A stretch of 64,000 nt of DNA from Alphaproteobacteria bacterium UBA3002 (GCA_002346425.1 DDZS01000065.1:73-64072), one strand, 5' to 3'; counted from the first letter of the stretch, positions 1,863 to 46,836 are shown. The notes: generated from the sequence alone by a model not told the origin. Program-made: numbers and translations.

Positions 1863-1896
1863 TGCATAGCAAGTTAGGATTACAGTTTGATGACAG
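1863..1896 (-). promoter_or_regulatory. Pho-box promoter P1: CTGTCATCAAACTGTAAT, 7 nt, TGC-TATGCA
   Basis: Two 7-bp direct repeats 11 bp apart match the PhoB box consensus CTGTCATAWAWCTGTCAY. The box ends 10 nt upstream of a TGC-extended -10 hexamer, and no -35 is present. Confidence 0.65.
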
Positions 1897-1917
1897 CAAA
1901 AAAAACGGGGGGACCAC

Positions 1918-2205
1918 CTATGCGGCCACCTCCATTGCAGAGCGGTTTTGATCCATAACGACCAAGTTTACTTGAAGGTAATCAATACAAAATCCCTCAT
2001 CAGCTTCGTCGTCATTTTCTGCCGGTCGAATTTTTATGCCATGGCACGCAGCCATGGCTATCTCGAGTCTGAAGAAAGCGGCATTCTCCCTCTTTATGAG
2101 AGCAGCTGCTAATTTTAATGCGAATTGCTCGGCACAAAAGGGTATTTGCCTAATCATGGCTTCCATGGACACGCTTCGCGTGATTTCTTCACAAAAGCCT
2201 TCCAT
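1918..2205 (-). CDS. Hypothetical small protein (95 aa)
   Basis: ORF with GGAAGG Shine-Dalgarno, preceded by Pho-box promoter/leader copy 2. No family recognised. Confidence 0.5.
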   Translation of the reverse strand: MEGFCEEITRSVSMEAMIRQIPFCAEQFALKLAAALIKRENAAFFRLEIAMAACHGIKIRPAENDDEADEGFCIDYLQVNLVVMDQNRSAMEVAA

Positions 2206-2286
2206 TTAACCAACCTTCCTAGGATTCACCAGCGACTGGAAAAACCAGTCAAGAACATTCACGAAAGCGTAAATGAAATTGGGACT

Positions 2287-2320
2287 TGCATAGCATATCA
2301 GGATAACAGTTTCATGACAG
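2287..2320 (-). promoter_or_regulatory. Pho-box promoter P2: CTGTCATGAAACTGTTAT, 7 nt, TGC-TATGCA
   Basis: Same geometry as P1. It lies in the 3' end of the mug gene, upstream of ORF 1918..2205. Confidence 0.65.
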
Positions 2321-2819
2321 CGGCTGCCAACTCCTGCCACGGCACCACATCCCAATGCGGATTGGCGGCGCCGGAAGGTGATGTTAGCACCCAAAGCTGC
2401 GTCTCACCGACGTTGCCCGGTTGCGGGCCGTAGGGGATTTTTTGGGTCGGCAAGTCCAGATAAAAAGACGCGGCTTTCTTGCTGGTAAAGGCCAGATGAT
2501 GCGGTTGATAGCGTAGCAGCGTCCGATGCAATCGCTCTCGGGCTGCCGCGTCGTTTACTAAGTCAACATCCATGCCGCTTTGCGTTTTCATCATATCGGT
2601 CAGGCCTATGCCATAGTCGAGTAAATGCGGGAATTCCTGCGGCTTCAGTTGCCGTGACGTTAGCCCAACCTGATGCAATGTCGGCCAGAATTTATTGCCC
2701 GGCCCGGCGTAATAGGCGCGGGCTTCTGCTGATTTCCACCCCGCCGCCGTGCCACAAAACACCAGGCGCAAGCCGGGTTGCAGCAGGTCGGGGAGGACGT
2801 CGTTTGGATGAATCGTCAT
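2298..2819 (-). CDS. mug: G:T/U mismatch-specific DNA glycosylase (Mug/TDG family)
   Basis: 173 aa. LVFCGTAAG..S......YYAGPGNKFWPTL motif typical of the UDG family 2 active-site region. Confidence 0.7.
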   Translation of the reverse strand: MTIHPNDVLPDLLQPGLRLVFCGTAAGWKSAEARAYYAGPGNKFWPTLHQVGLTSRQLKPQEFPHLLDYGIGLTDMMKTQSGMDVDLVNDAAARERLHRTLLRYQPHHLAFTSKKAASFYLDLPTQKIPYGPQPGNVGETQLWVLTSPSGAANPHWDVVPWQELAAAVMKLLS

Positions 2820-2833
2820 ATCGGCGGGAGCCG

Positions 2834-5101
2834 CTACACTTCCCCAAACACATTGCTACGCGGGAAACCGACCGGGGGAAGCTTGCCCGTTCCGGCGCGG
2901 TTACCGAGCCAAGGGGTCATGTCTTCTTCCAGACGCACTTTGCTGCCCATTTGCCAGCTTAAGCCCTCGGCGAGCGTGAAGGTTTTCGCGTCAGACAGCG
3001 TGCCGCCTTTGTATTTTTGTAACGTGACGCCCTGTCCGCGCTTCATGTCGGGGATCTGGTCGAGCGGGAATACCAACAGCTTGCGACCCGTGCCGATAAC
3101 GGCGACGTGATCGCCCTCGACGGGAACGCAGACCCTTGCTTTGCCTTTGCCGGGGTTGAGAATCTGTTTGCCGCCCTTGGTTTGCGCCATCACTTCTTCT
3201 TCGGTAACGATAAAGCCCTTGCCCTGTTCGCTGGCGACCAGCAGCTTTTTCTTCGGTTCCGCAACTTTGATCATCAGCGGCGCGTCTTTCTGCTCCAACC
3301 CGATCATCAGGCGGATCGGCTCACCCTGCCCCTTGGCGCCGGGCAGCTTGTCGCAGCCGATGGTATAGAAGCGCCCATCCTCGCCAAAGACCAGCAGTTT
3401 ATCGGTCGTTTTGGCTTTAAGCTGGAAGGCAGCTTCATCGCCTTCTTTGAATTTGAGGTCGGGAATCTCGTCAAAATGCCCCTTAAACGCGCGCACCCAG
3501 CCCAGTTTCGAACACACAATGGTAATCGGCTCTTTCTCAATAAAGGCTTCCGGCGAAATTTGTAAACTTGGATCGGGTACATCGCCCAGTTCAGTGCGGC
3601 GCTTACCAAGCTCAGTTGCCTGTCCGAAGCGTTTTTTAATGTCTTTCACTTCGTCGCTGATGCGTTTCCAGCGGCCATCCTCATCTTGAAGTAACGCCTG
3701 AAGTTCTTTCTGTTCGGCCTTAAGTTCCTTATGTTCTTTTCGGATTTCCATCTCTTCAAGCTTGCGCAACTGACGCAGGCGCATGTTGAGGATGGACTCG
3801 GCCTGCATATCGGTCAGGCCAAAGACTTTCATCATTTCCTGCTTCGGCTCATCTTCTTCACGGATGATGCGAATGACCTCGTCGAGATTTAGGTAACAGA
3901 TCAGCAGCCCTTCAAGAATTTCCAGGCGGCGGGCGATTTTATCGAGGCGGTATTGCGTGCGCCGTTGCAACACGTCCATCCGGTGGTCGAGATAGGCCTG
4001 CAGCAATTCGCGCAGATTCATCACCTGCGGCACCCCATCGGCGCGCAGCACATTCATATTCATGCTGAATCGGCTTTCAAGATCGGTCACTTTGAACAGC
4101 GACTCCATCAGAATTTCCGCTTCCACCATGCGATTCTTTGGCTCCAGCACGATGCGGATATCCTCCGCCGATTCGTCCATAATATTGGCCAGCAGCGGCA
4201 ATTTCTTCGCGCGCCACAATTCGGCGATTTTTTCGATCAACTTGGATTTCTGCACCTGATACGGAATTTCCGTAATAATAATCTGATACATGCCATGCTT
4301 CATTGGCTCTTTATGCCATTTCGCGCGCATCCGCACCCCGCCGCGCCCTTCGCTATAGGCTTTCAGCAGATTCGCGGGCGATTCCACAATTACCCCGCCG
4401 GTGGGGAAATCCGGCGCTGGCATACGCGCCATCAGTGTATCAATCGCGGCATTCGGGCTTTTAATGAGGTAGAGCAGCGCATCGCAAATCTCGCCGAGGT
4501 TATGCGGCGGAATTGAGGTCGCCATACCAACCGCAATCCCCTCCGACCCGTTAGCCAGCAGATTCGGCAGGCCCGCAGGCATCACAATCGGCTCCTGCTC
4601 CTCGCCATCATAGGTCGGGCGGAAATCGACCGTGTCGGCGTCAATCCCCTCCATTAGCGCCATCGCCACTTCGGTCAGCCGCGCTTCGGTATACCGCATC
4701 GCCGCCGCGTTATCGCCGTCGATCGAGCCGAAATTCCCCTGCCCATCAACCAGCGGATAGCGCACCGCGAAGGCCTGCGCCAGTCGCACCATCGTGTCAT
4801 AGACAGCCGTATCGCCATGCGGATGGTATTTACCGATCACATCACCGACCACGCGCGCACATTTCTTGAATCCGGTATTCGGGTTCAGCTTTAGCTGCAA
4901 CATGGCGTATAACAACCGCCGATGCACCGGTTTCAGCCCATCGCGCACATCCGGCAGCGAGCGGCTGGTAATCGTCGACAAGGCATAAGCCAGATACCTT
5001 TCCGAAATCGCATCCTTAAAGGAGACGTCGACAATAGTTTCCGTGACCGCTGGTTTCTTAGGCATAGCAAGGGGTTTAGCGGGTTTCACCGGCTTTGCCA
5101 A
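2834..5101 (-). CDS. parC: DNA topoisomerase IV subunit A
   Basis: 755 aa. GyrA/ParC N-terminal breakage-reunion domain ([37 protein letters not shown]) without the long GyrA-type C-terminal acidic tail. A separate bona fide gyrA is at 54815. Confidence 0.9.
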
Positions 5102-5349
5102 TGGTGAAATCCCGTCTGTGTGCAGCTTTATACGCGCTTTTCGTCATGGCGTAAGGCAGAAACGTACCAGTAAATGGCGTTTTCTGCCGAGCTGAAAGTG
5201 TTGGCAGTCCAAGAATTTCAGAAGAGGGAAAGGAACCTTGGTGTTTGTATCAAACCACAAATACATAATATTCTGCAGCTCCAATGAGGGTTCCTAGTCC
5301 TGATATAAAGAATATTAAGCGCAGCCCTGCTCATTAAACCTGTGATGGC

Positions 5350-5362
5350 GGCAGTTTTTGCC
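5350..5362. promoter_or_regulatory. Palindrome GGCAGTTTTTGCC (GGCA-N5-TGCC), candidate enhancer (UAS) for a sigma-54 activator
   Basis: Its centre lies about 99 bp upstream of the GG of the sigma-54 promoter at 5454. The same palindrome plus about 17 flanking bp recurs at 57610, and a variant occurs at 21724. An FlbD-like activator is encoded at 61632. Confidence 0.5.
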
Positions 5363-5453
5363 TAGCTTATATTATTTGTATTTGACATAGGCATAAATTT
5401 CCCATAAAGTACGATTATCAGCAGTGGCTCGGCAAGCAAAGCAATAAAATAAC

Positions 5454-5469
5454 TGGCACGCTGATTGCA
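5454..5469 (+). promoter_or_regulatory. Sigma-54 (-24/-12) promoter TGGCACGCTGATTGCA
   Basis: Exact match to TGGCAC-N5-TTGCW with canonical GG-N10-GC spacing. It lies about 35 nt upstream of the AGGAGA Shine-Dalgarno and ATG 5503. Confidence 0.75.
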
Positions 5470-5502
5470 TAATAAAAACAAATAATAACAAGGAGACATG
5501 CA

Positions 5503-5736
5503 ATGGAAGACGTGCTGGACAGACAGAATACAGTAGCGCAGGCAGACGCCGCGATCCGCCAACTGGCCGAAGAGCAAGTGGTGTTTCTCAAAAACCGGTA
5601 CGGCATGGGTGCAGCAGATATCATCGCCCTATACGGTGGCAAGTCGCTTGGCAGCGCAAATTTTACCGATGCGATTGAGCATATCGCGGTCTTTAATATG
5701 GAAACCGCGCTGAAAAATGGGTTCATCGCCTCGTAG
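5503..5736 (+). CDS. Hypothetical 77-aa protein, predicted sigma-54-dependent
   Basis: ORF with AGGAGA 6 nt upstream of the ATG, a sigma-54 promoter upstream and a strong terminator downstream. No family recognised. Confidence 0.6.
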   Translation: MEDVLDRQNTVAQADAAIRQLAEEQVVFLKNRYGMGAADIIALYGGKSLGSANFTDAIEHIAVFNMETALKNGFIAS

Positions 5737-5761
5737 TTAGTAACGAAATACCTTGCCTAGC

Positions 5762-5808
5762 GCCGGTTTGGAGGGCTCCCAAAAGTCCAAACCGGCTTTT
5801 TCTTTTTT
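5762..5808 (+). terminator. Rho-independent terminator
   Basis: Perfect 11-bp stem GCCGGTTTGGA/TCCAAACCGGC followed by a T-rich run TTTTTCTTTTTT. Confidence 0.75.
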
Positions 5809-5943
5809 AAGCACCTAATCCTTCCACACGCGTTTGCATCACTCGTGCCGAAAAGCGCGCTCTATACATGTTGCACTGCACTAATAGGCTTTACGCTCGA
5901 CGCATTCTTTTGCTAAGATGACGACTAATCATAGGAATGCCTC

Positions 5944-6240
5944 ATGCCAAAAATTGATCCGCCAAAAGATGCCCAATCGCTGATCATCGGACTCATCCTG
6001 ATCATTGTACTTGCCGGCATTTTTGTGACGCTGCTGGCCTTAAGCGTTTACCAGCTCACCGAAGCGCGCGCCTGGTTTTACGACACCTCATTTGGCTATT
6101 CTCTGTATCACGAAATCCTGAATATCGGCTATGACAGCAAAGAAGAACGTATACTGATTTACTGCCTCGCCCCATTCTATGTGTTTCTATGCGGATTCGT
6201 GTTAAGCGCGATCATCCGTTTGGCCTCTGGCAAGAAATAA
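5944..6240 (+). CDS. Hypothetical membrane protein (98 aa, about 3 TM)
   Basis: Hydrophobic segments. 4-nt gap to the next ORF suggests an operon. Confidence 0.5.
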   Translation: MPKIDPPKDAQSLIIGLILIIVLAGIFVTLLALSVYQLTEARAWFYDTSFGYSLYHEILNIGYDSKEERILIYCLAPFYVFLCGFVLSAIIRLASGKK

Positions 6241-6244
6241 CAAC

Positions 6245-6493
6245 ATGAAAACAATACGACTCATTTTCGGTATCGCATTGGCGCTCGTCGTGCTGGTGTT
6301 ATTTATTAAATTCGGCCTCGCTATCATCGCGTTTCCGGGCCACCTACTCCTCACCGATCCTTCCGGGTTTCAGGCGTTTTTGGTCGGTGCCATTATCTGG
6401 GTAGTGCTTGGCATCCCGGTTTTCAGCTTCCTCTTTTTCGGAAGCGCCATCATCGCGGTGATCAGCGCCGTTTTATTACGCAAGCGCCGATAA
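6245..6493 (+). CDS. Hypothetical membrane protein (82 aa, about 3 TM)
   Basis: Almost entirely hydrophobic, with a C-terminal RKRR. Confidence 0.5.
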   Translation: MKTIRLIFGIALALVVLVLFIKFGLAIIAFPGHLLLTDPSGFQAFLVGAIIWVVLGIPVFSFLFFGSAIIAVISAVLLRKRR

Positions 6494-6494
6494 G

Positions 6495-6968
6495 TTACAG
6501 AATCGTCGGATTCGGCGCATCCCCATACACTTCAACCGGATCAAAGACTTTCTCCGATTCTTTAAAGTTCAGGTTCAGGTCTTGATCAGCTGCTTTGCCG
6601 GTCGGCACTTCGCGGTAAAAACAGCTGCGATAGCCCACGTGGCAACTCGCATCCCCCGGAATATCGACCCGCAGCCATACCGCATCCTGGTCATCATCGA
6701 TGCGCATTTCGACGACTTTTTGCACCAGGCCAGACGTTGCGCCTTTATGCCATAATACTTGGCGCGAACGGCTGTAATAATGCGCTTCACCGGTCTCGAT
6801 GGTTTTAAGCAAGGCTTCTTCATTCATATAACCCAGCATCAACACTTCGCCGCTTCCCGCCGCTGTCGTGACGCAGGCAATCAACCCATGTTCGTCAAAT
6901 TTCGGCGCCAGTTGCGTGCCCTCTTCGACTTGTTCAATGGTTTCGCGCGTGTAGAATGGCTGCGTCAT
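6495..6968 (-). CDS. hisI: Phosphoribosyl-AMP cyclohydrolase
   Basis: 157 aa. GLI.CV......[15 protein letters not shown]...[20 protein letters not shown]...DDDQDA and C..GYRSCFYR motifs. Confidence 0.85.
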
Positions 6969-6981
6969 GATTTAGTCCTCG

Positions 6982-7006
6982 GTCATCCTGAACTTGTTTC
7001 AGGATC
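6982..7006. repeat. REP-like palindromic element GTCATCCTGAACTTGTTTCAGGATC
   Basis: GTCATCCT-hairpin-AGGATC architecture shared with the two copies at 46881..46963. Intergenic, between hisI and the next gene. Confidence 0.6.
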
Positions 7007-7059
7007 TATTACGGGTTAGAAAATACGTTCGGAATGACGTAAATAAGGAAAAACCGCCC

Positions 7060-7509
7060 ATGACGCAAGACCCAATCTCGCTGGATACCGACCATAGCCG
7101 CCGTCTTTGGCAGATGCTAAACGCCATTCCCGATGAAGTATTGCTCGATTATTTGTCCGATCACATCGTGGATGACAGCGAAATCGATGACATTACCCAG
7201 CGCATCGCACTACTCTGCCAGCAGCATCACACCGAACTGACTATTACCCAGGAAGACCGCGAATTATTGCGGCGCATGGTGCATCACAGCGTCGAACATA
7301 TCCGCCATCAGCAAGATGTCGAGGATCGAATAGAAGCCAAGATGGGCCAGATCAGCCTCCAGCAAGTGACGCAAGTCATGGGCGGTCTTTTGCAATCCGG
7401 TCATATCGCGATTGGCGACCACGCCGTCGCTGGCGACCCGCAAAGCGGCCATATCCCAACCGAGCGTCCAGATGATTACGACGAAGAAGCGCCAAACCCG
7501 GTAGAATAA
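7060..7509 (+). CDS. Hypothetical acidic protein (149 aa)
   Basis: ORF taken from the ATG downstream of the REP element (the ORF-track start at 6994 runs through the repeat). No family recognised. Confidence 0.5.
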   Translation: MTQDPISLDTDHSRRLWQMLNAIPDEVLLDYLSDHIVDDSEIDDITQRIALLCQQHHTELTITQEDRELLRRMVHHSVEHIRHQQDVEDRIEAKMGQISLQQVTQVMGGLLQSGHIAIGDHAVAGDPQSGHIPTERPDDYDEEAPNPVE

Positions 7510-7626
7510 TGTCCGCACCGGCATTGCCGGTACTCGTGGCCTACCTTCGGGACACCTCCATATAGTGCGACAAGTTCTGGGAAAATGCGCCCGTTTTTGC
7601 TATACTCTTTTTAAAAAGGGAGAGCT

Positions 7627-9147
7627 ATGGCACGCGGGGTCATTACGTTGGTCGGGATTGGCCAATCCAATATGGTGGGCAACACTTTTTCTGGCGGCGA
7701 CCTATCCACCGATACACGCATCAAAGCTTTTAATAGCGCCACTGGCGCATGGGAAACGGCGCGTATCGATATGCGGTTCGACGATACAGACGGGTTAAGC
7801 GGCGGGAATAACATGCTCTGGCAATTTGCCAAGCGCCTGCAAGCCGAAACCGGGGCGGAAATCCGTTTGGTGATTGATGGACATAACGGGGCGTCAATCA
7901 CCGCCTGGAATGAAGACGAACGCGCGACTGAGCATTATTCCGATATGCTAAGCAAATTGCGCCATGCTGGGGTGACAGAGGTGGATCATGTCGTATTTGC
8001 GCAAGGCGAAGCCGATGCAAATCATAGCGCCAGCGGCGTGAATAGCGCGGCGGCCTATCGCGCCACCATTCTGGACATGGTGGTGCGGCTCTTTGGAGAA
8101 TCCTTTGCCAGTAGTGACATGCAATTTATCATGCCGCAATTGGCGGAAAGCGCCAGTGCTACGCATGCCGACCGCAACGATGTCATCGCCGGACTGGATC
8201 ACGATGGCGATGCCCGCACAACCGTTGCGAAAATCTATGGCCCGCGCGAAAGCATGTTTACTGCGCCAGACGCGCCGGATGGTGTGCACTGGACGGGTGA
8301 AGGTTTAACACGCATTGGGCAGGAAGCCCTTTGGCACGCGCATCTCAAAAGCCTGAATAACACGAACGAAGTAGCCGCCAGTCAGCAAGATATCCATACC
8401 GGTACCGATGGCGACGATAGCTTTACCTTTCATCAGGCGCGTGCCACCGAAACCTATACCGGCAATGGGCGCGACACGGTGATTTCCACCGGTCAGGGGC
8501 AAGACCACGTCTATCTAGGCGCCGGAGACGATCAAGCCAGCACCGGCGTCGGCAACGACGTGCTATTCGGTGGCGATGGGCATGACTGGCTGCAAGGCGG
8601 CAATGGCGAAGACGCGCTTAGCGGCGACGCCGGCAATGATTTACTCAGCGGCGGCAGCGGAAGCGACACGCTTTACGGCGGTGTGGGCGACGATATTTTG
8701 CTCGGCCTTTCGGGCAGCAACGCGTTATACGGCGGTTGGGGTAATGACTTCCTCTATGGCGGCATCAATAACGACTACCTTGCGGGTGGCGATGATGATG
8801 ACCTGTTACGTGGCGGATTGGGTTTTGATACATTAGAGGGCGGCGATGGCCGCGACCGACTCTATGCCAGCGGCAATGCCACCACACTCACTGGCGGGGC
8901 GGAAGGCGACTGGTTTATCCTGAACCCCCAGTTCATCGGCAGTCAGCATGTGACGACTATCACCGATTTTCAACCCAGTGATCGCATCCGCTTTGAAGGC
9001 TTCGACCGACTGCAACTGGAAAAGCTTGATTTCGCAGCCCCGACGGTCGATGCCTTGCTCATCACAGGTTTCGGCGATCAGGCGTTGATACGGTTAGAGG
9101 GGTATTTCAACTATAGCGCAGAATGGTTTGAATTTATTACGCTCTAA
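7627..9147 (+). CDS. Secreted SGNH/sialate-O-acetylesterase-like hydrolase fused to RTX (hemolysin-type Ca-binding) repeats
   Basis: N-terminal GIGQSNMVG block of the SGNH/DUF303-type esterases. The central to C-terminal region has about 12 GGxGxDxL nonapeptide repeats ([38 protein letters not shown]...). No signal peptide, consistent with a type I secretion substrate. TGCTATACT extended -10 at 7598..7606. Confidence 0.75.
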
Positions 9148-9150
9148 GCG

Positions 9151-9945
9151 CTAAATCCCGAAATTGCGTTCCCAGAATCCGGGTTGCGGAGGATACGGTT
9201 CCTGACGGCCAACCTCGTTATAGACGCAGACGATATAAGGTCCTTTACGCAGCGTCATCACATTCGAAACACGTTCCACTACGATATAATTGCCGCGCGT
9301 GCGGAAGTTGATCAGCTCTTCATTGCCTGCCGCGTCCACATTGAAAAAGGCGGGAACATCCGCATTTTTATCGGCAAATTCGAAATAGGTGAACTCGCCA
9401 TCGTCAAAAATACGCAAGGGCGAAATCGTTTCCGATCCACGAATGGAGTATTGGAAATTATATTTATCGGGTTCCTTATTGAAATCCGGCACATCATCGT
9501 CTTCTTCATAGACAATCGTCGCGATGTCATCTTCCGGATAGACGAAGCGCATCACAAACACCATCTCGCGATCGTCGATGTCCTCGGTTTCCCGCGCATG
9601 TAACTCGAAGTGATAGGTATGCTTATTGGTAATCACCGTCATATTGGTCAGCGCATCCTGCTCGATCGGCTTCAGGAAGATACGACTACCCGTCGGATTG
9701 ATCAGCCAGGAAATCGAATCACCTACTGAGATCGTCTGAATTTCTTCGTCAGGTGAAAACTCAATACTCGATTGATAGCCATAATGGCCAATAAATTTGA
9801 AGACTTCGTTTTCACTATACCGCACGGTTTGCAAGCGGTGCTCCGTTGCGATGGGCCGCGGGGTTTGCAGGGCGAACGCTTCCGAACCGGCGATAAAAAT
9901 CGTCAGAATCAGAAGAATCGCGGTGATAAAGCCTGCCTGTCTCAT
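9151..9945 (-). CDS. VirB9/TrbG/CagX-family type IV secretion outer-membrane core protein homologue (orphan)
   Basis: Signal peptide. N-domain ..VRYSENEVFKFIGHYGYQSSIEFSPDEEIQTISVGDSISWLINPTGSRIFLKPIEQDALTNMTVITNKHTYHFEL.. and C-domain ..RIFDDGEFTYFEF...LINFRTRGNYIVVERV...LRKG.. follow the VirB9 pattern. Confidence 0.75.
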   Translation of the reverse strand: MRQAGFITAILLILTIFIAGSEAFALQTPRPIATEHRLQTVRYSENEVFKFIGHYGYQSSIEFSPDEEIQTISVGDSISWLINPTGSRIFLKPIEQDALTNMTVITNKHTYHFELHARETEDIDDREMVFVMRFVYPEDDIATIVYEEDDDVPDFNKEPDKYNFQYSIRGSETISPLRIFDDGEFTYFEFADKNADVPAFFNVDAAGNEELINFRTRGNYIVVERVSNVMTLRKGPYIVCVYNEVGRQEPYPPQPGFWERNFGI

Positions 9946-9962
9946 TCCCCACCCTTATTGTT

Positions 9963-10706
9963 TTACGGTTGCATGACCTGCGGTTGAATCTGGTAGCTCA
10001 GCACCTTAAACTCTGGCTCCACCAGATCAAGCACATAATTGTCTTTGTCATCATCATATCGATTTTCTTCACGCAGGTCAGACCATTCGTAGCTAATCGT
10101 GGCCATCCAGTTGGTGCGCTCCCGCTCGTTACGCTCCACCCGCTCCTGCTCAAATTGGACCCGCGCGGTCAGCGGTTGAGAGTCTTCGATATACTGCACC
10201 GATTGCACGGTAATATTCAGCACGGCATATTTGCCGTACCGCCGAATCGGGCTGTTGCGATTGCTGGGGCTGATCTGTTGATCATAGGTCGAAAACACTT
10301 CCGGCACCGCATATTGGTAAATGAAATTACGCCGCGTATTATATTCGCTTTCATTATAGGCTTCGTAATTTTTCACAAATTGCGTCAGATAGAAGCGTTG
10401 CATTGCGGCGTTAATCGGTTCGCGTGCCTGCCGTAAAGGTTCTAGGCGCAGCCGCCGATTCATCATGTCATCGGTAGTAGTGGGATAGAAAAACGGCCGT
10501 ATATCCACGATCGGTAATAAGTTCACGATGCCCATAAACGCGAAGACAAAAATAAACGAACAGATGGCGGTGATAATCAGGAAAAAAACGCGCTGTGAAA
10601 TCGGCGCAACATAGATGCGGCTATACCATTCGCGCGATTCGGTGAAATACTCACCGGAGTCGATCTCCTCGCGCATTTTTGCCATATCCACATCGTCTTT
10701 TGCCAT
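9963..10706 (-). CDS. VirB8/TrbF-family bitopic inner-membrane protein homologue (orphan)
   Basis: Cytoplasmic N-terminus (EYFTESREWYSRIY), a single TM (FFLIITAICSFIFVFAFMGIV) and a periplasmic region of about 170 aa of VirB8 size. Immediately upstream of the virB9-like gene (17-nt gap). Confidence 0.6.
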   Translation of the reverse strand: MAKDDVDMAKMREEIDSGEYFTESREWYSRIYVAPISQRVFFLIITAICSFIFVFAFMGIVNLLPIVDIRPFFYPTTTDDMMNRRLRLEPLRQAREPINAAMQRFYLTQFVKNYEAYNESEYNTRRNFIYQYAVPEVFSTYDQQISPSNRNSPIRRYGKYAVLNITVQSVQYIEDSQPLTARVQFEQERVERNERERTNWMATISYEWSDLREENRYDDDKDNYVLDLVEPEFKVLSYQIQPQVMQP

Positions 10707-10809
10707 AAAACTCAAAATGTTCGCGTTATAGTAACATATGTGTCACATTTGAATGAAATTTGTGTTAAACTAGCCTATACAATAAAAAAGACGGATTGGG
10801 GAGCATCTT

Positions 10810-14622: not shown

Positions 14623-15303
14623 ATAAGCTTCGGCCTGGGCTAACCCATCCGGATCGCCGATATGCAGCCAATCGCCGTCATGCACAACGGCGGTGATACG
14701 CCCTTCGGCTAACAAGCGGTTGTAGATGACGTTCATCGAAAACGCGCCCTCTGGCGCATGGACGAAGGCTCGCGGATGCAATAATTGCAGCCCGGTGAAC
14801 ACATAAGGCGCATGCGGCGCTTCGCCGCGGCGCGCCAGCTCTCCATCATTCAAGGTAAAATCCCCCGCCCCGTCATAACCGCGGGCGTGCTCACGCGGCA
14901 CCAGGGTTAACACGGCGTCCACTTCCTTATGCATCGCATCAGCCATGCGCGTCACCAACTGCGCTTGCGGGTCAATGCATAACGCATCACTATTAGCCAC
15001 GACGAATGGCGCTTCGCCCAATTGCGGCAAGGCATGGCGAATTCCGCCACCCGTTTCTAGCAGTTCCGCCTCGTAAAGCGCTGTTACCTGCGGCATAGCC
15101 TCAACATATTCCTGAATCTGCTCCGCCAGATAATGCGTATTCACTACCAGCTTCGACACCCCGTAACCACGCATCGCCTGCATATGCCAGCCGAGCAGTG
15201 GCGTTCCCGCCAGTTCAATCATCGGCTTTGGTGTGGCAAGCGTCAGGGGTCGCATCCGCGCCCCCAGTCCGGCGGCCAAAATCATTCCATGGGTAATCTG
15301 CAT
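14590..15303 (-). CDS. Sugar-1-phosphate nucleotidylyltransferase (MurU/GlmU-N-terminal-like)
   Basis: GMILAAGLGARMRPLTLATPKPM nucleotide-binding signature. Start chosen at ATG 15303. The 3' end overlaps the convergent giant gene by 33 nt. Confidence 0.7.
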   Translation of the reverse strand: MQITHGMILAAGLGARMRPLTLATPKPMIELAGTPLLGWHMQAMRGYGVSKLVVNTHYLAEQIQEYVEAMPQVTALYEAELLETGGGIRHALPQLGEAPFVVANSDALCIDPQAQLVTRMADAMHKEVDAVLTLVPREHARGYDGAGDFTLNDGELARRGEAPHAPYVFTGLQLLHPRAFVHAPEGAFSMNVIYNRLLAEGRITAVVHDGDWLHIGDPDGLAQAEAYLVDHREVMLA

Positions 15304-15431
15304 GAATCTATCATGCGTCAGCGCGGCTGGCCGGAGCAATCATAGCATGCTTTTTGCTAACAAGTGGAAAGTCCCGTCTTGCGGCTTTGCAAGCGCGCGG
15401 CTGCATGCTAAGGCTAGAGGACAGAGAGGCT

Positions 15432-22618: not shown

Positions 22619-22960
22619 ATGGCTGTTTCATTTAATCACGCATCGAATGCCTATATGAGCTCCGCCAACCGTTTGGCCGAGCGTATCGTGACCGATATGG
22701 AAAATAAAACCGCCGGCGCGATCCCCAGCGATTCGACGCCGTCGACCTCGTTCAAAGATTTAATCAGCAACTCAATGGATCAGGCGCGCGACGCCGGTTA
22801 CCAGGGTGAGATGACCAGCACGAAAGCGGTCGCGAAAGAAGCCGAGCTGCATGACCTAATCACCGCAGTCTCCAATGCCGAGCTGACACTGAACACGGTC
22901 GTCGCCGTGCGCGATAAAATGATTGCGGCCTATCAGGACGTAATCAAGATGCCAATCTAA
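22619..22960 (+). CDS. fliE: Flagellar hook-basal body complex protein FliE
   Basis: 113 aa. C-terminal ..AELTLNTVVAVRDKMIAAYQDVIKMPI is typical of FliE. Position after flgC. Confidence 0.85.
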   Translation: MAVSFNHASNAYMSSANRLAERIVTDMENKTAGAIPSDSTPSTSFKDLISNSMDQARDAGYQGEMTSTKAVAKEAELHDLITAVSNAELTLNTVVAVRDKMIAAYQDVIKMPI

Positions 22961-23346
22961 GCGCGCTGCGTTTCTGTTTGCTGCGTGGTAGCAGGCAAAC
23001 CATGCGCCACTTCCGGCAGCGCCTCTACGCTAGCCATAATCGGCAACATTTTATGCGGTTGTAGCGGTTGCTTAATAACTGCTGTTTCCTGCTCTTCCCC
23101 ACCCGCTTTACTCGGCGCTTGGCGCTGTGCAACCTGATTCGTGCTATTGAATGCCGCGCCTAACGCATCAGCGGTACTCAACGCATGCAATGCCGCGTCG
23201 TATTCGGCCTAACTGACCGCGGCATCGCGTTGTAAAAATTGGCCATAAACCGGCACACCACCCAAAAAGCGGTTCCAGATATCGGCGCTTTTATATACTT
23301 CCCGCGCTTCTGTCAGACGTGTGTGTAAGTCGCTGCGTGTGGTCAT
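22957..23346 (-). pseudogene. 130-codon reading frame interrupted by one in-frame TAG (23209..23211): 45-aa ORF (23209..23346) plus an 83-codon continuation
   Basis: ATG 23346 has a GGAAGGAGA Shine-Dalgarno and its own Pho-box promoter. The frame continues after the amber codon to 22957. Either a genuine 45-aa gene or a disrupted or read-through gene. Confidence 0.4.
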
Positions 23347-23381: not shown

Positions 23382-23415
23382 TTTATAGCAGAGAAATATG
23401 ACAGTTTTGTGACAG
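23382..23415 (-). promoter_or_regulatory. Pho-box promoter P3: CTGTCACAAAACTGTCAT, 7 nt, TGC-TATAAA
   Basis: Best match in the window to the Pho-box consensus, with the same spacing to the extended -10 as P1 and P2. About 30 nt leader to ATG 23346. Confidence 0.7.
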
Positions 23416-29863: not shown

Positions 29864-30448
29864 TTATCGCTGACGCGAAGTTTTCTCCACCGTACCGTCG
29901 ATGACCGGCCCCATTCTCACCTCCTCCAGAGAGGTGGGCAGGATAACAGGAGGAGCAGCGCTTGCTTGAACTTCTGCCCTCGCCTCTGCGACCAGCTTCT
30001 CCAGCGCATGAAATAGACACGCAAGGAAAGCTGAGTAGAAAAGGAGTTGCACAGCGGTGAAGCCGTAATACTCCCAGTCCGTCGGAATACGGCCATTGGT
30101 CCAGACCCATTCCGCCACCAAGGCAATGATTGCGGCGAATAGGCACCACCACACAGAACTGAGCAGACGTTCGCCATTGCATTGCTGCAGACGATTTAGT
30201 CGTCCAACGCGTTGGTTTTCCCAGTTCAATGCCGCGATGATGCCGCCCGTAATGACAAGTATTTTCACCACCTGCCATACCGTCCATAGAAGAGCCGGAA
30301 TCAGATACACGATGACCGCATACCCGACTGCGCCAATGACCGCCATTTCGATTGCGGGTTTGACTGCGGGGTGTAGTGGACCTGCGGCTCGATTGAGCCG
30401 AACCCACCACTCAGGCTGAGAACTGCCATTATTATTTTTTGAACTCAT
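29864..30448 (-). CDS. Hypothetical 4-TM membrane protein (194 aa)
   Basis: ORF from ATG 30448 with an upstream Pho-box promoter. Inserted on the opposite strand between trpE and trpG. No family recognised. Confidence 0.5.
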   Translation of the reverse strand: MSSKNNNGSSQPEWWVRLNRAAGPLHPAVKPAIEMAVIGAVGYAVIVYLIPALLWTVWQVVKILVITGGIIAALNWENQRVGRLNRLQQCNGERLLSSVWWCLFAAIIALVAEWVWTNGRIPTDWEYYGFTAVQLLFYSAFLACLFHALEKLVAEARAEVQASAAPPVILPTSLEEVRMGPVIDGTVEKTSRQR

Positions 30449-30523
30449 GTAGAGCCCCCAAAAAAACCGAAAGGGGATTGCTCCCCATTCTATTATCAGC
30501 AAAGGCTAATAAAGATTACTTAC

Positions 30524-38828: not shown

Positions 38829-38896
38829 CCGTCACACGACTGTCATAAAGGTTTCGCAGAACTGTCACACACAAAACCGGCGGATTTCGGTACTGT
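38829..38896 (+). promoter_or_regulatory. Tandem Pho boxes P6: CCGTCACACGACTGTCAT + (4 nt) + GTTTCGCAGAACTGTCAC, 22 nt, TACTGT
   Basis: Four phased 7-mers with 11-bp periodicity; three of the four are good TGTCA-type repeats. Lies upstream of ATG 38927 (AGGAGA Shine-Dalgarno). Confidence 0.55.
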
Positions 38897-38926
38897 AGTA
38901 GAAATTGAAAACGCAGGAGACACGTG

Positions 38927-39586
38927 ATGCAATTAAATGCAGATACGAGAAAATACATTAACAGTGGCTTTGAGCTGACAACGCGCTTGAATTCCGCCGC
39001 GTATCATACCGCGCCGGAAGCACAGCATGATCGCCTATATGGCGCAAAAAATCAGATCGCAGGCACTCTTCTGACACTCATCGCGGATGGCGCTCTGACG
39101 ACTGGTAAAGATGGAGATGTAACGCTAACGCATTATAAAAGCGACGAGCACCCGAATCTGGATATTCTTAAAGTGCAAAACAATGAAACTGGCCATGCAT
39201 TTCACATCCCGACCAGCATGCTTAATGACAAGACGCGCAATAAGCTCTTAGTCAATGCAGTCGATGAAACGCGTGACCGTAAACGCAAAAGCCATCATCC
39301 AAAATTACATACTATGAATATTGATGATTTATTGCTGGCTACCGAAAATAACGAAATTTATCAAACCGGCGAAGCCTTAGCCTCGTCCGTATATGTTGAA
39401 CCTGAAAAAGCCATCGCGCATAGCTTAGATGGTTTAGGTGAAGCCTTAGACAAACAAATGGCCGCGTTGAAAGACAAATTAATGGGGCACCACAAAGTTG
39501 GCAGAGCATTTACTCCTGCCGCATCGGCAACCGGTCGCCTAGAAGCGCAACGCGATAGTCAGGTAGTGCAAGGCCCATCTCTCTAG
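38927..39586 (+). CDS. Hypothetical protein (219 aa)
   Basis: ORF with a strong Shine-Dalgarno, a Pho-box promoter and a downstream terminator. No signal peptide and no family recognised. Confidence 0.6.
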   Translation: MQLNADTRKYINSGFELTTRLNSAAYHTAPEAQHDRLYGAKNQIAGTLLTLIADGALTTGKDGDVTLTHYKSDEHPNLDILKVQNNETGHAFHIPTSMLNDKTRNKLLVNAVDETRDRKRKSHHPKLHTMNIDDLLLATENNEIYQTGEALASSVYVEPEKAIAHSLDGLGEALDKQMAALKDKLMGHHKVGRAFTPAASATGRLEAQRDSQVVQGPSL

Positions 39587-39604: not shown

Positions 39605-39632
39605 AAAAAAGCAGCTTTCGGGCTGCTTTTTT
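39605..39632. terminator. Bidirectional rho-independent terminator
   Basis: AAAAAAGCAGC-TTTCGG-GCTGCTTTTTT between convergent genes. Confidence 0.7.
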
Positions 39633-40188
39633 ATGGCGTTACTGCAGCGGCTTTCTGCGCCAACCGCCCTTTGGCTTCTGCCATTGATACGACACCTTCG
39701 GGCCATACCTTATGTAATGACTCAGGATCGACCGGACACATTATCTGCGCCAGATAGGTTTGCGCTTTAGGCCGTATCATGGCCAGATCATAGGCTTCCA
39801 GATACCAAAGCTCTGGCGGTGCTTCCTGCATGATTTCATGCACGAAACAACTATCGGTATAATTATGAAAATAGTCTTTCAGAAAGCTTTGCACGCGCAG
39901 CCGATAATCAGCGCTATATATATATTTGGGTAAAACATTCGCTAAAATTGTATCGCGCTCTTGCAGCGCTTTGTTTACTGTTTCTAGTAGCTGCGTTTCA
40001 TGTAATGTCACTTCCAACCGGGTCATTGGGTCGAACGCTATTTCCCCCTGTTCCTCCGCTTCGTTGAGCAAATGGACATAGAGCAGTTTCGCCTTCAGCT
40101 TCCCCAACTGCTGACCTAATGCATAACAGGCATCATGTTCTTTTGGCTGCATGTTTTGAAATAGGTGTAAAGCTTCGGTGCGGTTCAT
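39631..40188 (-). CDS. Hypothetical protein (185 aa)
   Basis: ORF convergent with 38927..39586. No signal peptide and no family recognised. Confidence 0.55.
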   Translation of the reverse strand: MNRTEALHLFQNMQPKEHDACYALGQQLGKLKAKLLYVHLLNEAEEQGEIAFDPMTRLEVTLHETQLLETVNKALQERDTILANVLPKYIYSADYRLRVQSFLKDYFHNYTDSCFVHEIMQEAPPELWYLEAYDLAMIRPKAQTYLAQIMCPVDPESLHKVWPEGVVSMAEAKGRLAQKAAAVTP

Positions 40189-40210
40189 ACCCTCTTAGTG
40201 CCACAGCATT

Positions 40211-40228
40211 GTGACAACTTGATGAACT
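40211..40228 (-). promoter_or_regulatory. Weak Pho-box-like sequence P7: AGTTCATCAAGTTGTCAC
   Basis: The second half-site is good and the first degenerate. Only 10 nt from a poor -10 (CACTAA), leaving almost no leader. Low confidence. Confidence 0.25.
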
Positions 40229-40239
40229 TCAGAAAAAAA

Positions 40240-41346: not shown

Positions 41347-41376
41347 AACCTACCAAATCACTTGGTTTTTGGCAAG

Positions 41377-42928: not shown

Positions 42929-42949
42929 TATTACTCAAAAGGATTTACT

Positions 42950-43024: not shown

Positions 43025-43034
43025 GGGGGCAACC

Positions 43035-43622: not shown

Positions 43623-43645
43623 CGCTAACTGAAAGCTATAAGAAG

Positions 43646-43673
43646 GGGCGCTCTAACCAGAGCGCCCTTTTTT
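43646..43673. terminator. Bidirectional rho-independent terminator
   Basis: GGGCGCTCT-AACC-AGAGCGCCC followed by TTTTTT, between convergent genes. Confidence 0.7.
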
Positions 43674-44160
43674 ATTGCAGGCCTTTGTGAATCTGCTGAC
43701 TAATCCCCAGCAAGGCTTCGGTAAGCCCGCGGGCATTTTGCTCCGCATCATACCGCCCGGCACATTGACCCGTTTTCATAAAACAGCTTTTAATATGCTC
43801 CAGCCGCTCTTGCGGTGTGCGTTCGATATAATCAGGGTCCAGATCAGTCGGGCTTACATCTGGAAACTCGCCCACATAATTATACCCCAACTCCGTTATC
43901 TCGCGCTTGGTATTGAACGCAGCAATGACTTGGTTTAGCTCGGTTTCACTTAGACTTTGCGCTGCCTTCGTGCGCGTTCTCGGGTGATCGCCTCGGGCAA
44001 GATTGGCATAATGCTCAAGGTTATCGCGAGTCAGACCGGGATGAGCAAGGGTCAAGCCTTCCAGAAACGCTTCGATACGCTGCTCAATTGGCGTCAGCGG
44101 CCTATTTTCAAGCAACCGCGCTGCTTGTTCCGCTTGCCGTTGCGTCAACATGAAGCCCAT
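43672..44160 (-). CDS. Hypothetical protein (162 aa), paralogue of 44169..44666
   Basis: The N-terminal about 75 aa align with the upstream gene product (L-T/S-x-x-Q, P-x-P-I-E, AF, T-K/R, Q-x-L-S-E-x-E). Confidence 0.55.
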   Translation of the reverse strand: MGFMLTQRQAEQAARLLENRPLTPIEQRIEAFLEGLTLAHPGLTRDNLEHYANLARGDHPRTRTKAAQSLSETELNQVIAAFNTKREITELGYNYVGEFPDVSPTDLDPDYIERTPQERLEHIKSCFMKTGQCAGRYDAEQNARGLTEALLGISQQIHKGLQ

Positions 44161-44168
44161 TTTAGCGC

Positions 44169-44666
44169 CTATGCACGCGATTGGTGCAGGGATTGCGCCA
44201 CATTGAGCAAATCCGTATTGATCGTGCGTACATTCTGCTCAGCTTCTGCTTCTCCCACACAGATGACGGCGTCTCCACGCTCTATTGTACTTAATCCGAC
44301 AAACAGTGCTTTGAGTTTGGTCGCGGCTTCTGTTGCGCTTATTTCCGGGCCAATGGTAATGGTGTTTTTATTCTCTCCGCAATAAGCTTCCGTCAGAGTG
44401 GTTAGAAGAGTTTCATATTCCATATAAGCTTCAACGATTCGCACTTCATATTCGCTGAGATTTTGTGAAAGACGTGTTTTGCTACTATCGTGACCTAAAA
44501 AAAGCGCTGTTTCATGCTGAACGGCCATCTCTGCCAGTTTAGGGTAAGTATCCAACAAATCATTAAACGCCTTGATTAATTTTGCTTCTATTGGCACCGG
44601 CATGCGCTCTTGAAGTTTGGACTCCAAAAGTGCCTGCTGGTGCGTGCTTAGAGCAAATCCGCTCAT
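44169..44666 (-). CDS. Hypothetical protein (165 aa), paralogue of 43672..44160
   Basis: ATGA start/stop overlap with fba suggests translational coupling. No family recognised. Confidence 0.55.
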   Translation of the reverse strand: MSGFALSTHQQALLESKLQERMPVPIEAKLIKAFNDLLDTYPKLAEMAVQHETALFLGHDSSKTRLSQNLSEYEVRIVEAYMEYETLLTTLTEAYCGENKNTITIGPEISATEAATKLKALFVGLSTIERGDAVICVGEAEAEQNVRTINTDLLNVAQSLHQSRA

Positions 44667-45592
44667 TTCGCTTCTTTATAGATCTGCACGATATCTTTCA
44701 GCATATCCAAGGCTTCGGCGCGCGGGCGTTGGAACACGTTGCGACCGATGATCGACCCATCTCCGCCACCTTTGGCGATGGATTTGATCTCGTCCATCAA
44801 TTCGGAGGTCGACTTGGTGCCGCCACCGGAGAAGATTACCAGACGGCGACCAGCGAAGGTTGCCTGTTTAATATGTGCCACGCGTTCACCCAAGGTGTTC
44901 GAGGGGATTTTTTCTTTCTCATACACGACGCGCGCTTCCTTCAATTCCAGCTTATCGCTCGGCAGCTTCACCTTGATAATATGCGCGCCGAGCAGTGCCG
45001 CCATATGCGCGGCATAGGTACAGATATCGAACGCCGTTTCGCCATCTTTCGACAGGGCCCCACCGCGCGGATACGACCAGATCACCACGGCCAACCCATA
45101 GGCTTTCGCTTCTTCGGCCATTTCGCGGATATCTTCGAACATATCGAAGGCCGCATCAGAGCCGGGATAAATCGTAAAGCCGATGGCCGAACAGCCGAGC
45201 CGCAGCGCTTCCTGCACCGAGCCGGTGACCGCCTGATTATGGCCCCCAACATGCGTCGCGAGGGAGTTCGCGCTGTTTACTTTCAGAATCGTTGGGATTG
45301 CTCCGGCAAAGGTCCCTGCTCCGGCTTCCAGCATGCCAAGCGGTGCGGCATAGGCGTTTAAGCCTGCATCAATCGCCAGTTTGAAATGGTAATGGGGGTC
45401 ATAGGCGTCCGGGTTTTGGGCGAAGCTGCGCGCCGGTCCATGTTCAAATCCTTGGTCGACTGGTAAAATCACTAATTTACCCGTCCCAGCCAGTTTACCG
45501 GTCATCATCATCTGCGCCAGCTTGGCTTTCGTGCCGGGATTGTCCGACTCGTAATAGGAAAGAATCTTCTGAACTTTTTGCGTCAGTTTCAT
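44663..45592 (-). CDS. fbaB: Class I fructose-bisphosphate aldolase (FbaB/DhnA-type)
   Basis: 309 aa. ..GKLVILPVDQGFEHGP.. and ILKVNS motifs of the DeoC/FbaB aldolase family. Confidence 0.85.
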   Translation of the reverse strand: MKLTQKVQKILSYYESDNPGTKAKLAQMMMTGKLAGTGKLVILPVDQGFEHGPARSFAQNPDAYDPHYHFKLAIDAGLNAYAAPLGMLEAGAGTFAGAIPTILKVNSANSLATHVGGHNQAVTGSVQEALRLGCSAIGFTIYPGSDAAFDMFEDIREMAEEAKAYGLAVVIWSYPRGGALSKDGETAFDICTYAAHMAALLGAHIIKVKLPSDKLELKEARVVYEKEKIPSNTLGERVAHIKQATFAGRRLVIFSGGGTKSTSELMDEIKSIAKGGGDGSIIGRNVFQRPRAEALDMLKDIVQIYKEAK

Positions 45593-45675
45593 AGGCCATA
45601 ACCTCCAATGTGTTTGCGTTACACTAGGTGTAGCCCATGCAAACGCCGGGTCAATGCTAAAATCAAGAAGTGGGA

Positions 45676-46752
45676 TTAGGTCGCGAGCGCGATACCGCCT
45701 TGTGTGCGCCCCGCAGCGCCCGGTGCAGTTGCACCTTCCACATGCTGACCACCCTCGCCCAGATTCAGATTCGCATAGATTTTAGGGTCTGAGATTGGCC
45801 CTAACGATGCTTGGCTGTAAGTTTCCAGCTTTCCTTTAACATGGGCGGGAACGTTATCTAATACGACTGGCTTTTGGATGGTTGGCAGCCCTTCAAATAG
45901 TTGTTTTTGTAAGGCGTCATTTGCTTCCAGCCCCGTCAGCAATGTGCCTTGGAGTTCGGTAGGCAGCAGGTTGAATAGCGCTTTTGCGTTATCCGGCTGA
46001 TCATCCGCGAGTCCGGTCAGTAATGATTTCTGTAACGGTAAGTCTAGCTTACCATAGGCTTCCGCGCGTTTCGCCGGATCGGTAATCATTGACAATGTCA
46101 TGATTTGAACAGGCGCTTCGTTGATCGCAGCAATTAACTTACCCGCTTGCTCCCCACTCAAATGATCGTTCAACAAGGTTTTCTGATGAGTATTATCTTG
46201 TTTTTTGAATGCGGCCACTTGCTCTGCTAATGGCAAATCAACGAAAGCCGCCGGTTCCATTTTCTCTTTACCACCGAACCACTCATCTAGTTTGCCCGCT
46301 ACAAAATCATGGCCGCCGCCTTGCATGAACCAACCGACTGCTGCGGCAGTACCGGCGACTACGGCTAATAATCCGTTAAAACTAAACCAACCTGTATTTT
46401 CATCGGCAAATAAACGAATGGCTTGGCTGCCCGCGAAAAATGCGGCGAGTGCACCGCCGGTGCGCACAACATCGCTGACATTGGTTTCCCCATCATGGCC
46501 TTGGAAGGTATCGACCGCGTAACCCATCGCGCCGCGGGTTTCTTCTAATACCGCTTCTACCTTCGGTTTGACCGCAGCGGAAAGTTCGGAGGTTTTCTGA
46601 TCTAAATAAGCAGTCGCATCGGATCCATATTGTGACGCTGCTTCTTGCATTTCACGCAAACGGTGCTGAAGATCGCCTGCCAGCTCGCCAGAAGATGCGC
46701 TAATATCTTCGTATAATTCGTTGATTTTACGTTTAATTTCTTCGAGCGTCAT
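45676..46752 (-). CDS. Hypothetical protein (358 aa) with N-terminal coiled coil, central hydrophobic hairpin and C-terminal LLTGL repeats
   Basis: ORF with AGGAG Shine-Dalgarno and a Pho-box promoter. Hydrophobic segments GGALAAFFAGSQAI and GLLAVVAGTAAAVGWFM. No family recognised. Confidence 0.6.
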   Translation of the reverse strand: MTLEEIKRKINELYEDISASSGELAGDLQHRLREMQEAASQYGSDATAYLDQKTSELSAAVKPKVEAVLEETRGAMGYAVDTFQGHDGETNVSDVVRTGGALAAFFAGSQAIRLFADENTGWFSFNGLLAVVAGTAAAVGWFMQGGGHDFVAGKLDEWFGGKEKMEPAAFVDLPLAEQVAAFKKQDNTHQKTLLNDHLSGEQAGKLIAAINEAPVQIMTLSMITDPAKRAEAYGKLDLPLQKSLLTGLADDQPDNAKALFNLLPTELQGTLLTGLEANDALQKQLFEGLPTIQKPVVLDNVPAHVKGKLETYSQASLGPISDPKIYANLNLGEGGQHVEGATAPGAAGRTQGGIALAT

Positions 46753-46791
46753 AATAACCGGCTCCTAATTGCTAAAATTTTACTTATTATC

Positions 46792-46836
46792 AGTATAGCA
46801 GATAGCGTGAGGGGTTATGTGACAGTTTCATGACAT
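46792..46836 (-). promoter_or_regulatory. Pho-box promoter P4: ATGTCATGAAACTGTCAC, 18 nt, TGC-TATACT
   Basis: Consensus-like box, with a third TGTCA 7 nt further upstream. The extended -10 is identical in form to the other promoters. Confidence 0.6.

Follow-up and report, generated by a model that had tools for sequence, protein, structure and literature searches.

The 64,000-nucleotide stretch of Alphaproteobacteria bacterium UBA3002 treated here (GCA_002346425.1, DDZS01000065.1:73-64072; hereafter the window) has a GC content of 53% and carries flagellar genes, an N-methyl pilin-like gene, comEC, trp, metE, hisI, hemH and an isolated virB8-virB9 pair of a type IV secretion system (T4SS). 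Scattered among these genes are six promoters, P1 to P6, each with repeats that resemble the Pho box of the PhoB regulon and each directed at a gene whose product belongs to no recognisable family (an orphan in what follows; Table 1). A preliminary description of the same DNA had read them as a phosphate-starvation regulon made almost entirely of such orphans, and re-reading the window confirmed every box in position, strand and sequence. What kind of regulator would use these boxes, and for what kind of genes?

The consensus of the Pho box is CTGTCAT-A(AT)A(TA)-CTGT(CA)A(CT) in E. coli (PMC3465305) and CTGTCAT-N4-CTGTCAT in S. meliloti (PMC2573895). The window sites come as close to it as those of E. 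coli pstS and phoA, in keeping with what had been claimed for them. Counting the pair at P6 as two, the seven sites depart from the consensus at one or two of the 14 core positions, P6b excepted, and their spacers are CAAA, GAAA, AAAA, GAAA, AAAA, ACGA and AGAA. The four repeats of P6 stand in a continuous 11-bp register. A base-by-base check of the geometry bore out the earlier reading as well. At P1, P2 and P3 exactly 10 nt separate the box from the -10 hexamers TATGCA, TATGCA and TATAAA, each of which is preceded by TGC and is thus an extended -10. At P4, P5 and P6 the distance is one helical turn longer, that is, 21, 22 and 22 nt to TGCTATACT, TGCTATGCT and TACTGT, the last being a weak -10. 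A scan with the sigma-70 consensus that requires a -35 element recognised none of the six promoters, as expected from the activator-dependent arrangement that had been proposed, in which the box occupies the -35 position. All boxes are co-oriented with an open reading frame (ORF), whose start lies 21-150 nt past the -10.

The claim that such sites are more frequent than chance also holds. CTGTCATN4CTGTCAT with up to three mismatches has 10 matches in the window against 3.5 +/- 1.7 in dinucleotide-preserving shuffles, none of which attained 10. With up to two mismatches there are seven matches, six of them at sites already described; five of these six fall within the 8-9% of the window left non-coding by the gene list, and the sixth, P2, overlaps the end of the gene for uracil-DNA glycosylase (UDG). 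Taken together, six of the seven best matches lie in this non-coding part or at its edge. The combined pattern TGTCAYNAAACTGTNA-N8-20-TGCTAT occurs five times in the window and not once in 100 shuffles, and the position weight matrix that had been suggested as a check scores the seven sites at 16-30 bits and every other position of the window at 12 bits or less. The density is about one site per 10 kb, and an eighth strong site, TTGTCACAAAACTGTCAT, lies just beyond the left end of the window, upstream of a 415-aa orphan; the metagenome contig that carries it matches window positions 622-12819 at 100% identity.

As for the genes behind the boxes, codon-frame bias favours the frame proposed for each of the six ORFs, which are therefore probably real genes. 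Their sizes agree with those first given (97, 95, 45/130, 358, 212 and 220 codons for P1 to P6), and so does their character: none of the six products matches Pfam or NCBIfam, and the window holds no classical Pho gene. Terminator-like hairpins bound the units, which makes those of P5 and P6 single-gene units and that of P4 a four-gene unit. In 5.8 billion clustered proteins the 358-aa product of P4 has no match but itself. For the P6 product, HMMER was run exhaustively against 1.84 billion representatives and returned nothing beyond a fragment of the product itself and one marginal match; the AlphaFold2 model of this product has a mean predicted local distance difference test score (pLDDT) of 53.6, and Foldseek returned no match in the PDB with E below 0.1. 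As the products of P4 and P6 are without homologues and the metagenome copies of the region, at least 20, are all 100% identical, window genes do not lend themselves to phylogenetic footprinting. No recognisable effector signal or domain was found in the six products. Sec-type N-termini were not seen by eye in the window products, which is compatible with substrates of a T4SS and not diagnostic of them.

Table 1. Promoter parts, genes and terminators of P1 to P6, with the neighbouring T4SS genes, in window coordinates
Feature	Position	Strand	Remarks
P1 box CTGTCATCAAACTGTAAT	1879..1896	-	two 7-bp direct repeats, 11-bp period
P1 extended -10 TGCTATGCA	1871-1863	-	
P1 transcribed leader	1804..1862	-	82% identity to P2 leader; two conserved hairpins
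P1 gene, 97-aa orphan	1467..1760	-	public gene callers give an 81-aa start at 1712; coding-like frame bias
Terminator-like hairpin and T-run after P2 gene	~1897-1930		directly before P1 box
P2 box CTGTCATGAAACTGTTAT	2303..2320	-	overlaps last codons of UDG gene
P2 -10 TATGCA	2292-2287	-	
P2 transcribed leader	2228..2286	-	paralogue of P1 leader
P2 gene, 95-aa orphan	1918..2205	-	MAR55960.1, 'hypothetical protein [Rickettsiales bacterium]'
P3 box CTGTCACAAAACTGTCAT	23398..23415	-	
P3 -10 TATAAA	23387-23382	-	
P3 gene, 130-codon frame	22957..23346	-	in-frame TAG at codon 46 (23211-23209); both halves coding-like
P4 box ATGTCATGAAACTGTCAC	46819..46836	-	
P4 extended -10 TGCTATACT	46800-46792	-	21 nt downstream of P4 box
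P4 transcription unit, four genes	43672..46752	-	
P4 unit, 358-aa orphan with hydrophobic hairpin	45676-46752	-	
P4 unit, DeoC/LacD-family aldolase	44663-45592	-	
P4 unit, two further orphans	44169-44666 and 43672-44160	-	
P4 unit, terminator	43667-43646	-	
P5 box ATGTCATAAAACTGTCAA	30552..30569	-	in divergent gap with trpG, 13 nt from trpG ATG
P5 -10 TATGCT (TGCTATGCT in geometry check)	30529-30524	-	22 nt downstream of P5 box
P5 gene, membrane orphan	29864..30502	-	inserted between trpE and trpGDC; start TTG 30502 or ATG 30448
P5 strong terminator	29840-29823	-	
P6 double box CCGTCAC ACGA CTGTCAT AAAG GTTTCGC AGAA CTGTCAC	38829..38868 (38829-38846 and 38851-38868)	+	
P6 -10 TACTGT, weak	38891-38896	+	
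P6 gene, 219/220-aa orphan	38924..39586	+	
P6 bidirectional terminator	39605-39632		
virB8-virB9 pair, isolated (T4SS)	9151..10715	-	context

Only P1 and P2 resemble each other outside the box. Their common stretch is a 94-nt repeat that includes the box and reaches about 60 nt into the transcript, while the products behind it are unrelated (E = 0.5). The shared leader of ~60 nt (window positions 1804-1866 and 2228-2290, minus strand) can form the hairpins CAUUUACG-CUUY-CGUGAAUG and GACUGG-loop-CCRGUC. It has no match in Rfam (a scan of the whole window gave tRNA-Lys only) and no further copy in the DNA retrieved; a cis-regulatory leader and a processed small RNA are both conceivable. Two other transcripts have peculiarities of their own. 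The TAG of the P3 frame (23209-23211, minus strand) is identical in four independent metagenome assemblies, and the sequence downstream of it is still coding-like; a recent nonsense mutation, stop-codon readthrough or two separate genes could each account for it. In P5 the gap between the -10 and the first ATG contains, at 30473-30486 (minus strand), a terminator-like hairpin followed by a T-run, GGGGAGCAATCCCC TTTCGGTTTTTTT, which may be an attenuator, or coding sequence instead if the TTG at 30502 is the start.

To which organism does this DNA belong? The P2 ORF is MAR55960.1, labelled 'Rickettsiales bacterium' at NCBI and coming from a Tara Oceans metagenome-assembled genome (MAG). Basal Rickettsiales such as Mitibacteraceae are described as flagellated marine bacteria that possess type IV pili and an rvh-type T4SS and have a higher GC (PMC9352585; GC ranges in PMC10847448). 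As judged by its genes and GC, the organism of the window fits this picture of a basal, probably free-living lineage and may belong to such a group. Its scattered T4SS genes are laid out as in Rickettsiales.

The same promoter grammar was looked for in other genomes by scanning one genome per species, 185,579 species in total, for the box followed by TGCTAT, a search for which we estimated about 30 chance matches. There were 102 matches, in three groups, the window's own species not being among them. The first group comes from known bacteria and includes phoB in three Colwellia species, pstS in Idiomarina, a PHS-type phosphate transporter and pitA in Neorhizobium, as well as ppk in a MAG labelled Alphaproteobacteria (L057) and a matching site in a Puniceispirillales MAG (L013). 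From the phoB, pstS, pitA and ppk matches it follows that the pattern captures PhoB promoters, alphaproteobacterial ones included. The second group is Clostridial, and here the repeat stands upstream of an OmpR-family regulator and an adjacent ATP-binding cassette (ABC) transporter that looks Bce-type, not Pho. In these Lachnospiraceae and Oscillospiraceae (L006, L008, L012, L019, L022, L043, L053, L056, L058, L072, L078, L096, L097), TGTCAC-N5-TGTCAC and TGCTATAAT precede the genes for the regulator and the transporter ATPase, an arrangement suggestive of a Bce-type module that regulates itself through an operator similar to the Pho box. As the repeat is shared by such loci, PhoB cannot be recognised from the motif by itself.

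The third group, about 50 of the 102 matches, consists of uncultured MAGs labelled Rickettsiales, Alphaproteobacteria or 'Azospirillum', 12 of them with two or three matches each. Between box and TGCTAT there are here 8 nt in 22 cases and 19-20 nt in 26, with hardly any other gap length, so that the same two helically phased classes appear as in the window. The MAG of the window shares the NCBI label of this group, and PyrG, HIT and DEAD-box proteins of the window have 64-74% identity to those of three of these box-bearing MAGs. We considered whether a box after pyrG or after the DEAD-box helicase is conserved in position; each was seen in single MAGs only, and this candidate was discarded as evidence. 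Behind the boxes of the related MAGs stand 45 ORFs, of which about 33 have no Pfam domain, and the others include ankyrin repeats, an M23 peptidase, a peptidoglycan-binding protein (PG_binding_1), an S11 carboxypeptidase, VWA, GST, SCO1, ppk and two TrbC/VirB2 pilins. The ppk gene of the MAG labelled only Alphaproteobacteria is the sole classical Pho gene among them. No homologue of these box-driven proteins was found in the window, nor any in the reverse direction. In nine MAGs (L009, L018, L054, L066, L068, L069, L084, L092, L100) a clearly homologous promoter, aatTGTCAYNAAACTGTCATCCTAC...AATGCTATAGTG, precedes a Gly/Ala-rich family of ~190 aa (MALLG..DD.YTKTG..., with a hydrophobic core) without a match in Pfam or NCBIfam; of the regulon members seen outside the T4SS it is the most conserved.

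In two of the MAGs (L063, L085) the box is followed by virB2 (TrbC/VirB2) and then virB4, and in L085 also by virB6. Because these two were found through the motif itself, metagenomes were also searched by VirB4 alignment without the motif, which gave 80 loci with 679 kb of DNA, scanned on both strands. Sites with up to two mismatches occur at four positions only in these 679 kb, twice in L121 and once each in L127 and L158, and all four are co-oriented with VirB4 and less than 700 nt upstream of it, a search space that amounts to ~4% of the total. With up to four mismatches L120, L123, L124, L128 and L162 join them, the box lying 570-690 nt upstream of VirB4 and just before a virB2 homologue. 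In eight of the nine, all but L128, exactly 10 nt separate the box from a TAnnnT hexamer, which is the geometry of P1-P3, and in L121, L127 and L158 a second box directly precedes virB4. The box-bearing VirB4 loci have a GC of 44-62%, which resembles that of basal Rickettsiales (PMC10847448); loci at 27-42% GC have no box. With both searches the box stands upstream of virB2-virB4 in L063, L085, L120, L121, L123, L124, L127, L158 and L162. As loci picked by VirB4 carry it there, the pilin/ATPase operon of the T4SS is, in the related clade, a conserved target of the protein that binds the box, whichever it may be. The idea of a host- or prey-related, lineage-specific programme, put forward in the preliminary description, gains support from the box at the T4SS operon of relatives and from their box-driven ankyrin, M23 and peptidoglycan-binding genes.

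How might these promoters work? They would be six sigma-70 promoters that lack a -35, have the extended -10 TGnTAnnnT and depend on an activator. A dimer of an OmpR/PhoB-family protein, or two dimers at P6, would sit on the 7-bp repeats spaced by 11 bp, over the -35 position at P1-P3 or one helical turn upstream of it at P4-P6, and class II activation would follow. The regulon would not be a phosphate-scavenging set. A core conserved in a basal-Rickettsiales-like clade would include the virB2-virB4 operon, and around it there would be a periphery of fast-evolving, lineage-specific small, membrane-hairpin or effector-like proteins, to which the window orphans would belong.

We take a PhoB orthologue as the likeliest regulator on account of the identity of the repeat with the Pho box, the precedents of ppk and pitA, and the PhoR-PhoB pair that some aquatic Rickettsiales encode (PMC6863919). 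If the regulator is most likely a PhoB orthologue, phosphate limitation is the likeliest signal, and to the two together we give a probability of roughly 0.55. Several points weigh against them. Classical Rickettsia are without PhoB (PMC6863919). In ~82 kb of this organism, the window with ~18 kb of extensions, neither phoB nor phoR, pst or phoU came to light, and the same holds for the 50 loci of related MAGs and for the 80 loci with VirB4; a search of all this DNA for an OmpR-type regulator or PstS gave none. PstS, PhoU, PhoB and phosphatases are missing from all of the 45 box-driven ORFs of the related MAGs, and in the Clostridial loci an OmpR-family regulator outside the Pho system appears to use the same repeat. 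The virB2-virB4 promoter of the window organism lies outside the DNA read, and of its T4SS genes only virB8-virB9 are visible, behind a repeat, ATTTCATTCAAATGTGAC, that resembles the box only weakly and stands 11 nt before TATAAC. Finally, the density in the window is about 10 times that in the flanks of the related MAG matches and far above that of described Pho regulons; E. coli PhoB has 43 sites by chromatin immunoprecipitation across the whole genome (PMC3465305). Since the related MAGs yield only six extra sites in 347 kb, such a density is not a property of the clade as a whole.

It might also be possible that the boxes belong to a dedicated OmpR-family regulator other than PhoB, with a PhoB-like specificity, which controls the T4SS and its substrates on another cue such as contact, the envelope, or a host or prey. 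By analogy it would be a counterpart of PmrA for the Dot/Icm system of Legionella and Coxiella, or of VirG in Agrobacterium. Such a regulator would suit the virB2-virB4 operons headed by the box in at least nine related loci, a set of driven genes with ankyrin, M23, peptidoglycan-binding, S11 and VWA proteins and some 33 orphans out of 45 and no pst or pho, and a site density unlike that of a Pho regulon; peptidoglycan-binding and M23 proteins have been named as candidate T4SS effectors for Mitibacteraceae (PMC9352585), and the Clostridial TGTCA-N6-TGTCA repeat is a precedent for non-Pho regulators. We nevertheless consider this main rival less likely than PhoB. Among well-studied proteobacterial regulators, the others being judged from general knowledge, the exact repeat, spacer and geometry belong to PhoB, the full grammar including TGCTAT stands before ppk and pitA in other Alphaproteobacteria, and no candidate regulator gene adjoins any box or T4SS locus in the loci scanned. 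Whether the regulator is PhoB or a dedicated protein, the content of the regulon is, to judge by the sequences compared, lineage-specific and linked to secretion, not to the scavenging of phosphate. The six window products may be substrates of the T4SS, immunity or accessory proteins, or starvation proteins with no tie to it.

An orthodox Pho regulon, in which unannotated members scavenge phosphate without any link to secretion, is improbable. The motif does equal the Pho box, phosphate is often limiting in the sea, where the organism lives, and the DeoC/LacD-family aldolase of the P4 unit is a sugar-phosphate enzyme, but the products have neither signatures of phosphatases, transporters or lipid-remodelling enzymes nor relatives of any kind, and the target conserved over the clade is the T4SS operon and not pst. 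That the boxes are no regulator sites, being an alternative sigma element, remnants of repeats or mobile elements, or chance, is more improbable still: P1 and P2 do lie within a 94-nt duplication, but the shuffles gave no match and flanking similarity is confined to that one pair. Two discrete spacings of box and -10, 11 nt apart, together with the phased run of four repeats at P6, are in line with a dimeric response regulator but not with the -35 element of a sigma factor. The -10 itself is of the sigma-70 kind, extended by TG, and the box is kept at orthologous virB2 promoters despite diverged flanks.

Compared with known systems, the promoters read here to be those of a PhoB orthologue share with the Pho-box promoters of E. 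coli pstS and phoA and of S. meliloti the same 18-bp site, CTGTCAT, a 4-bp A-rich spacer and CTGTCAY, repeating every 11 bp. The box stands in for the -35, with 10 bp left between its end and the -10; tandem boxes such as that of P6 are found there too, and the window sites are as near to the consensus as the E. coli pstS site CTGTCATAAAACTGTCAT (PMC3465305). They differ in that no phosphate-acquisition gene lies downstream, that half of them have a strong box one turn further upstream, that the T4SS operon of relatives is a target, and that PhoB itself was not observed in the DNA read. Two secretion regulators also invite comparison. PmrA, an OmpR-family protein of Legionella and Coxiella, recognises a tandem repeat whose distance to the -10 is constant, upstream of many unrecognisable, lineage-specific genes, and this repeat has been used to find effectors of Dot/Icm. 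Architecture and target genes are analogous, while the PmrA repeat is different (cTTAATatT-type) and Dot/Icm is a type IVB system, unlike the VirB-type or rvh-like type IVA here. VirG of the Agrobacterium Ti plasmid, of the OmpR/PhoB family, activates the virB T4SS operon together with the substrates, and virG is inducible by phosphate starvation. The vir box has another sequence, VirA/VirG responds to plant phenolics, and no regulator adjoins the T4SS genes here. T4SS effectors proposed to kill bacteria in Mitibacteraceae and Xanthomonas offer a further comparison: in related MAGs the box precedes PG_binding_1, M23 and S11 proteins, types highlighted in PMC9352585, whereas none of the six window products has these domains.

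Some further observations concern the surroundings. The neighbours of virB8-virB9 (9151-18575) are a 1270-aa protein without a relative in Pfam, NCBIfam or the PDB and a 1073-aa protein with tetratricopeptide repeats, and an RTX/SASA-esterase protein lies at 7627-9147; these large neighbours are possible substrates. At 40200-40228 (minus strand) three weak phased repeats, AGTTCAT CAAG TTGTCAC AATG CTGTGGC, stand 11 nt before the ATG of the orphan 39631-40188; this is too close for a normal promoter, and they may therefore mark a repressing site or a mis-called start. Alanine seems to be the C-terminal residue in unusually many box-driven products (..EEAA, ..EVAA, ..QRA, ..GRA, ..LTA, ..ALA), among them those of P1, P2 and P3 in the window and of L011, L021, L027, L052, L054, L068, L074, L075, L081, L092, L093 and others. 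Composition, a degradation tag or a secretion signal could lie behind it. Window positions 1-621, the 5' part of metE, have 69-91% identity to metagenome contigs and positions 622-12819 have 100%, which suggests an assembly chimera or recombination inside metE. In-frame tandem repeats are present in the tail of the DEAD-box helicase (47388-47600, 12-nt period) and in an FtsX/MacB-type permease (50781-50908, 15-nt period, His/acid-rich).

The motif and the promoter mechanism are textbook matters. What seem to be new, as far as the searchable literature shows, are a regulon of the Pho-box type with orphans for its visible members, its recurrence in a clade of uncultured, basal-Rickettsiales-like bacteria and the presence of the T4SS operon in it; nothing describing a link of the Pho box to T4SS effectors or to Rickettsiales was found in the literature. 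The T4SS of basal, apparently free-living Rickettsiales has no known substrates; it may serve to kill bacteria, as a defence against protists or in early interaction with hosts, a matter that bears on how host association arose in Rickettsiales (PMC9352585, PMC11077975). We tentatively suggest, by analogy with the secretion regulators above, that the Pho-box-type promoter could be the signature of the T4SS regulon of free-living-type basal Rickettsiales, where one PhoB-family regulator would switch on the rvh-like pilin/ATPase operon and a quickly changing set of orphan substrates together. A short and very specific promoter signature shared by the T4SS operon and scattered orphans would give a testable list of candidate cargo and a candidate inducing signal. 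With visible content that is almost wholly lineage-specific, the case also bears on how regulons of response regulators are rewired. If the suggestion is true, the box could list hitherto unknown effectors of the ancestral Rickettsiales T4SS, as the PmrA site did, and, if the regulator is PhoB as well, phosphate starvation would have been the ancestral trigger of T4SS-mediated antagonism or host interaction in a lineage that later became obligately intracellular.

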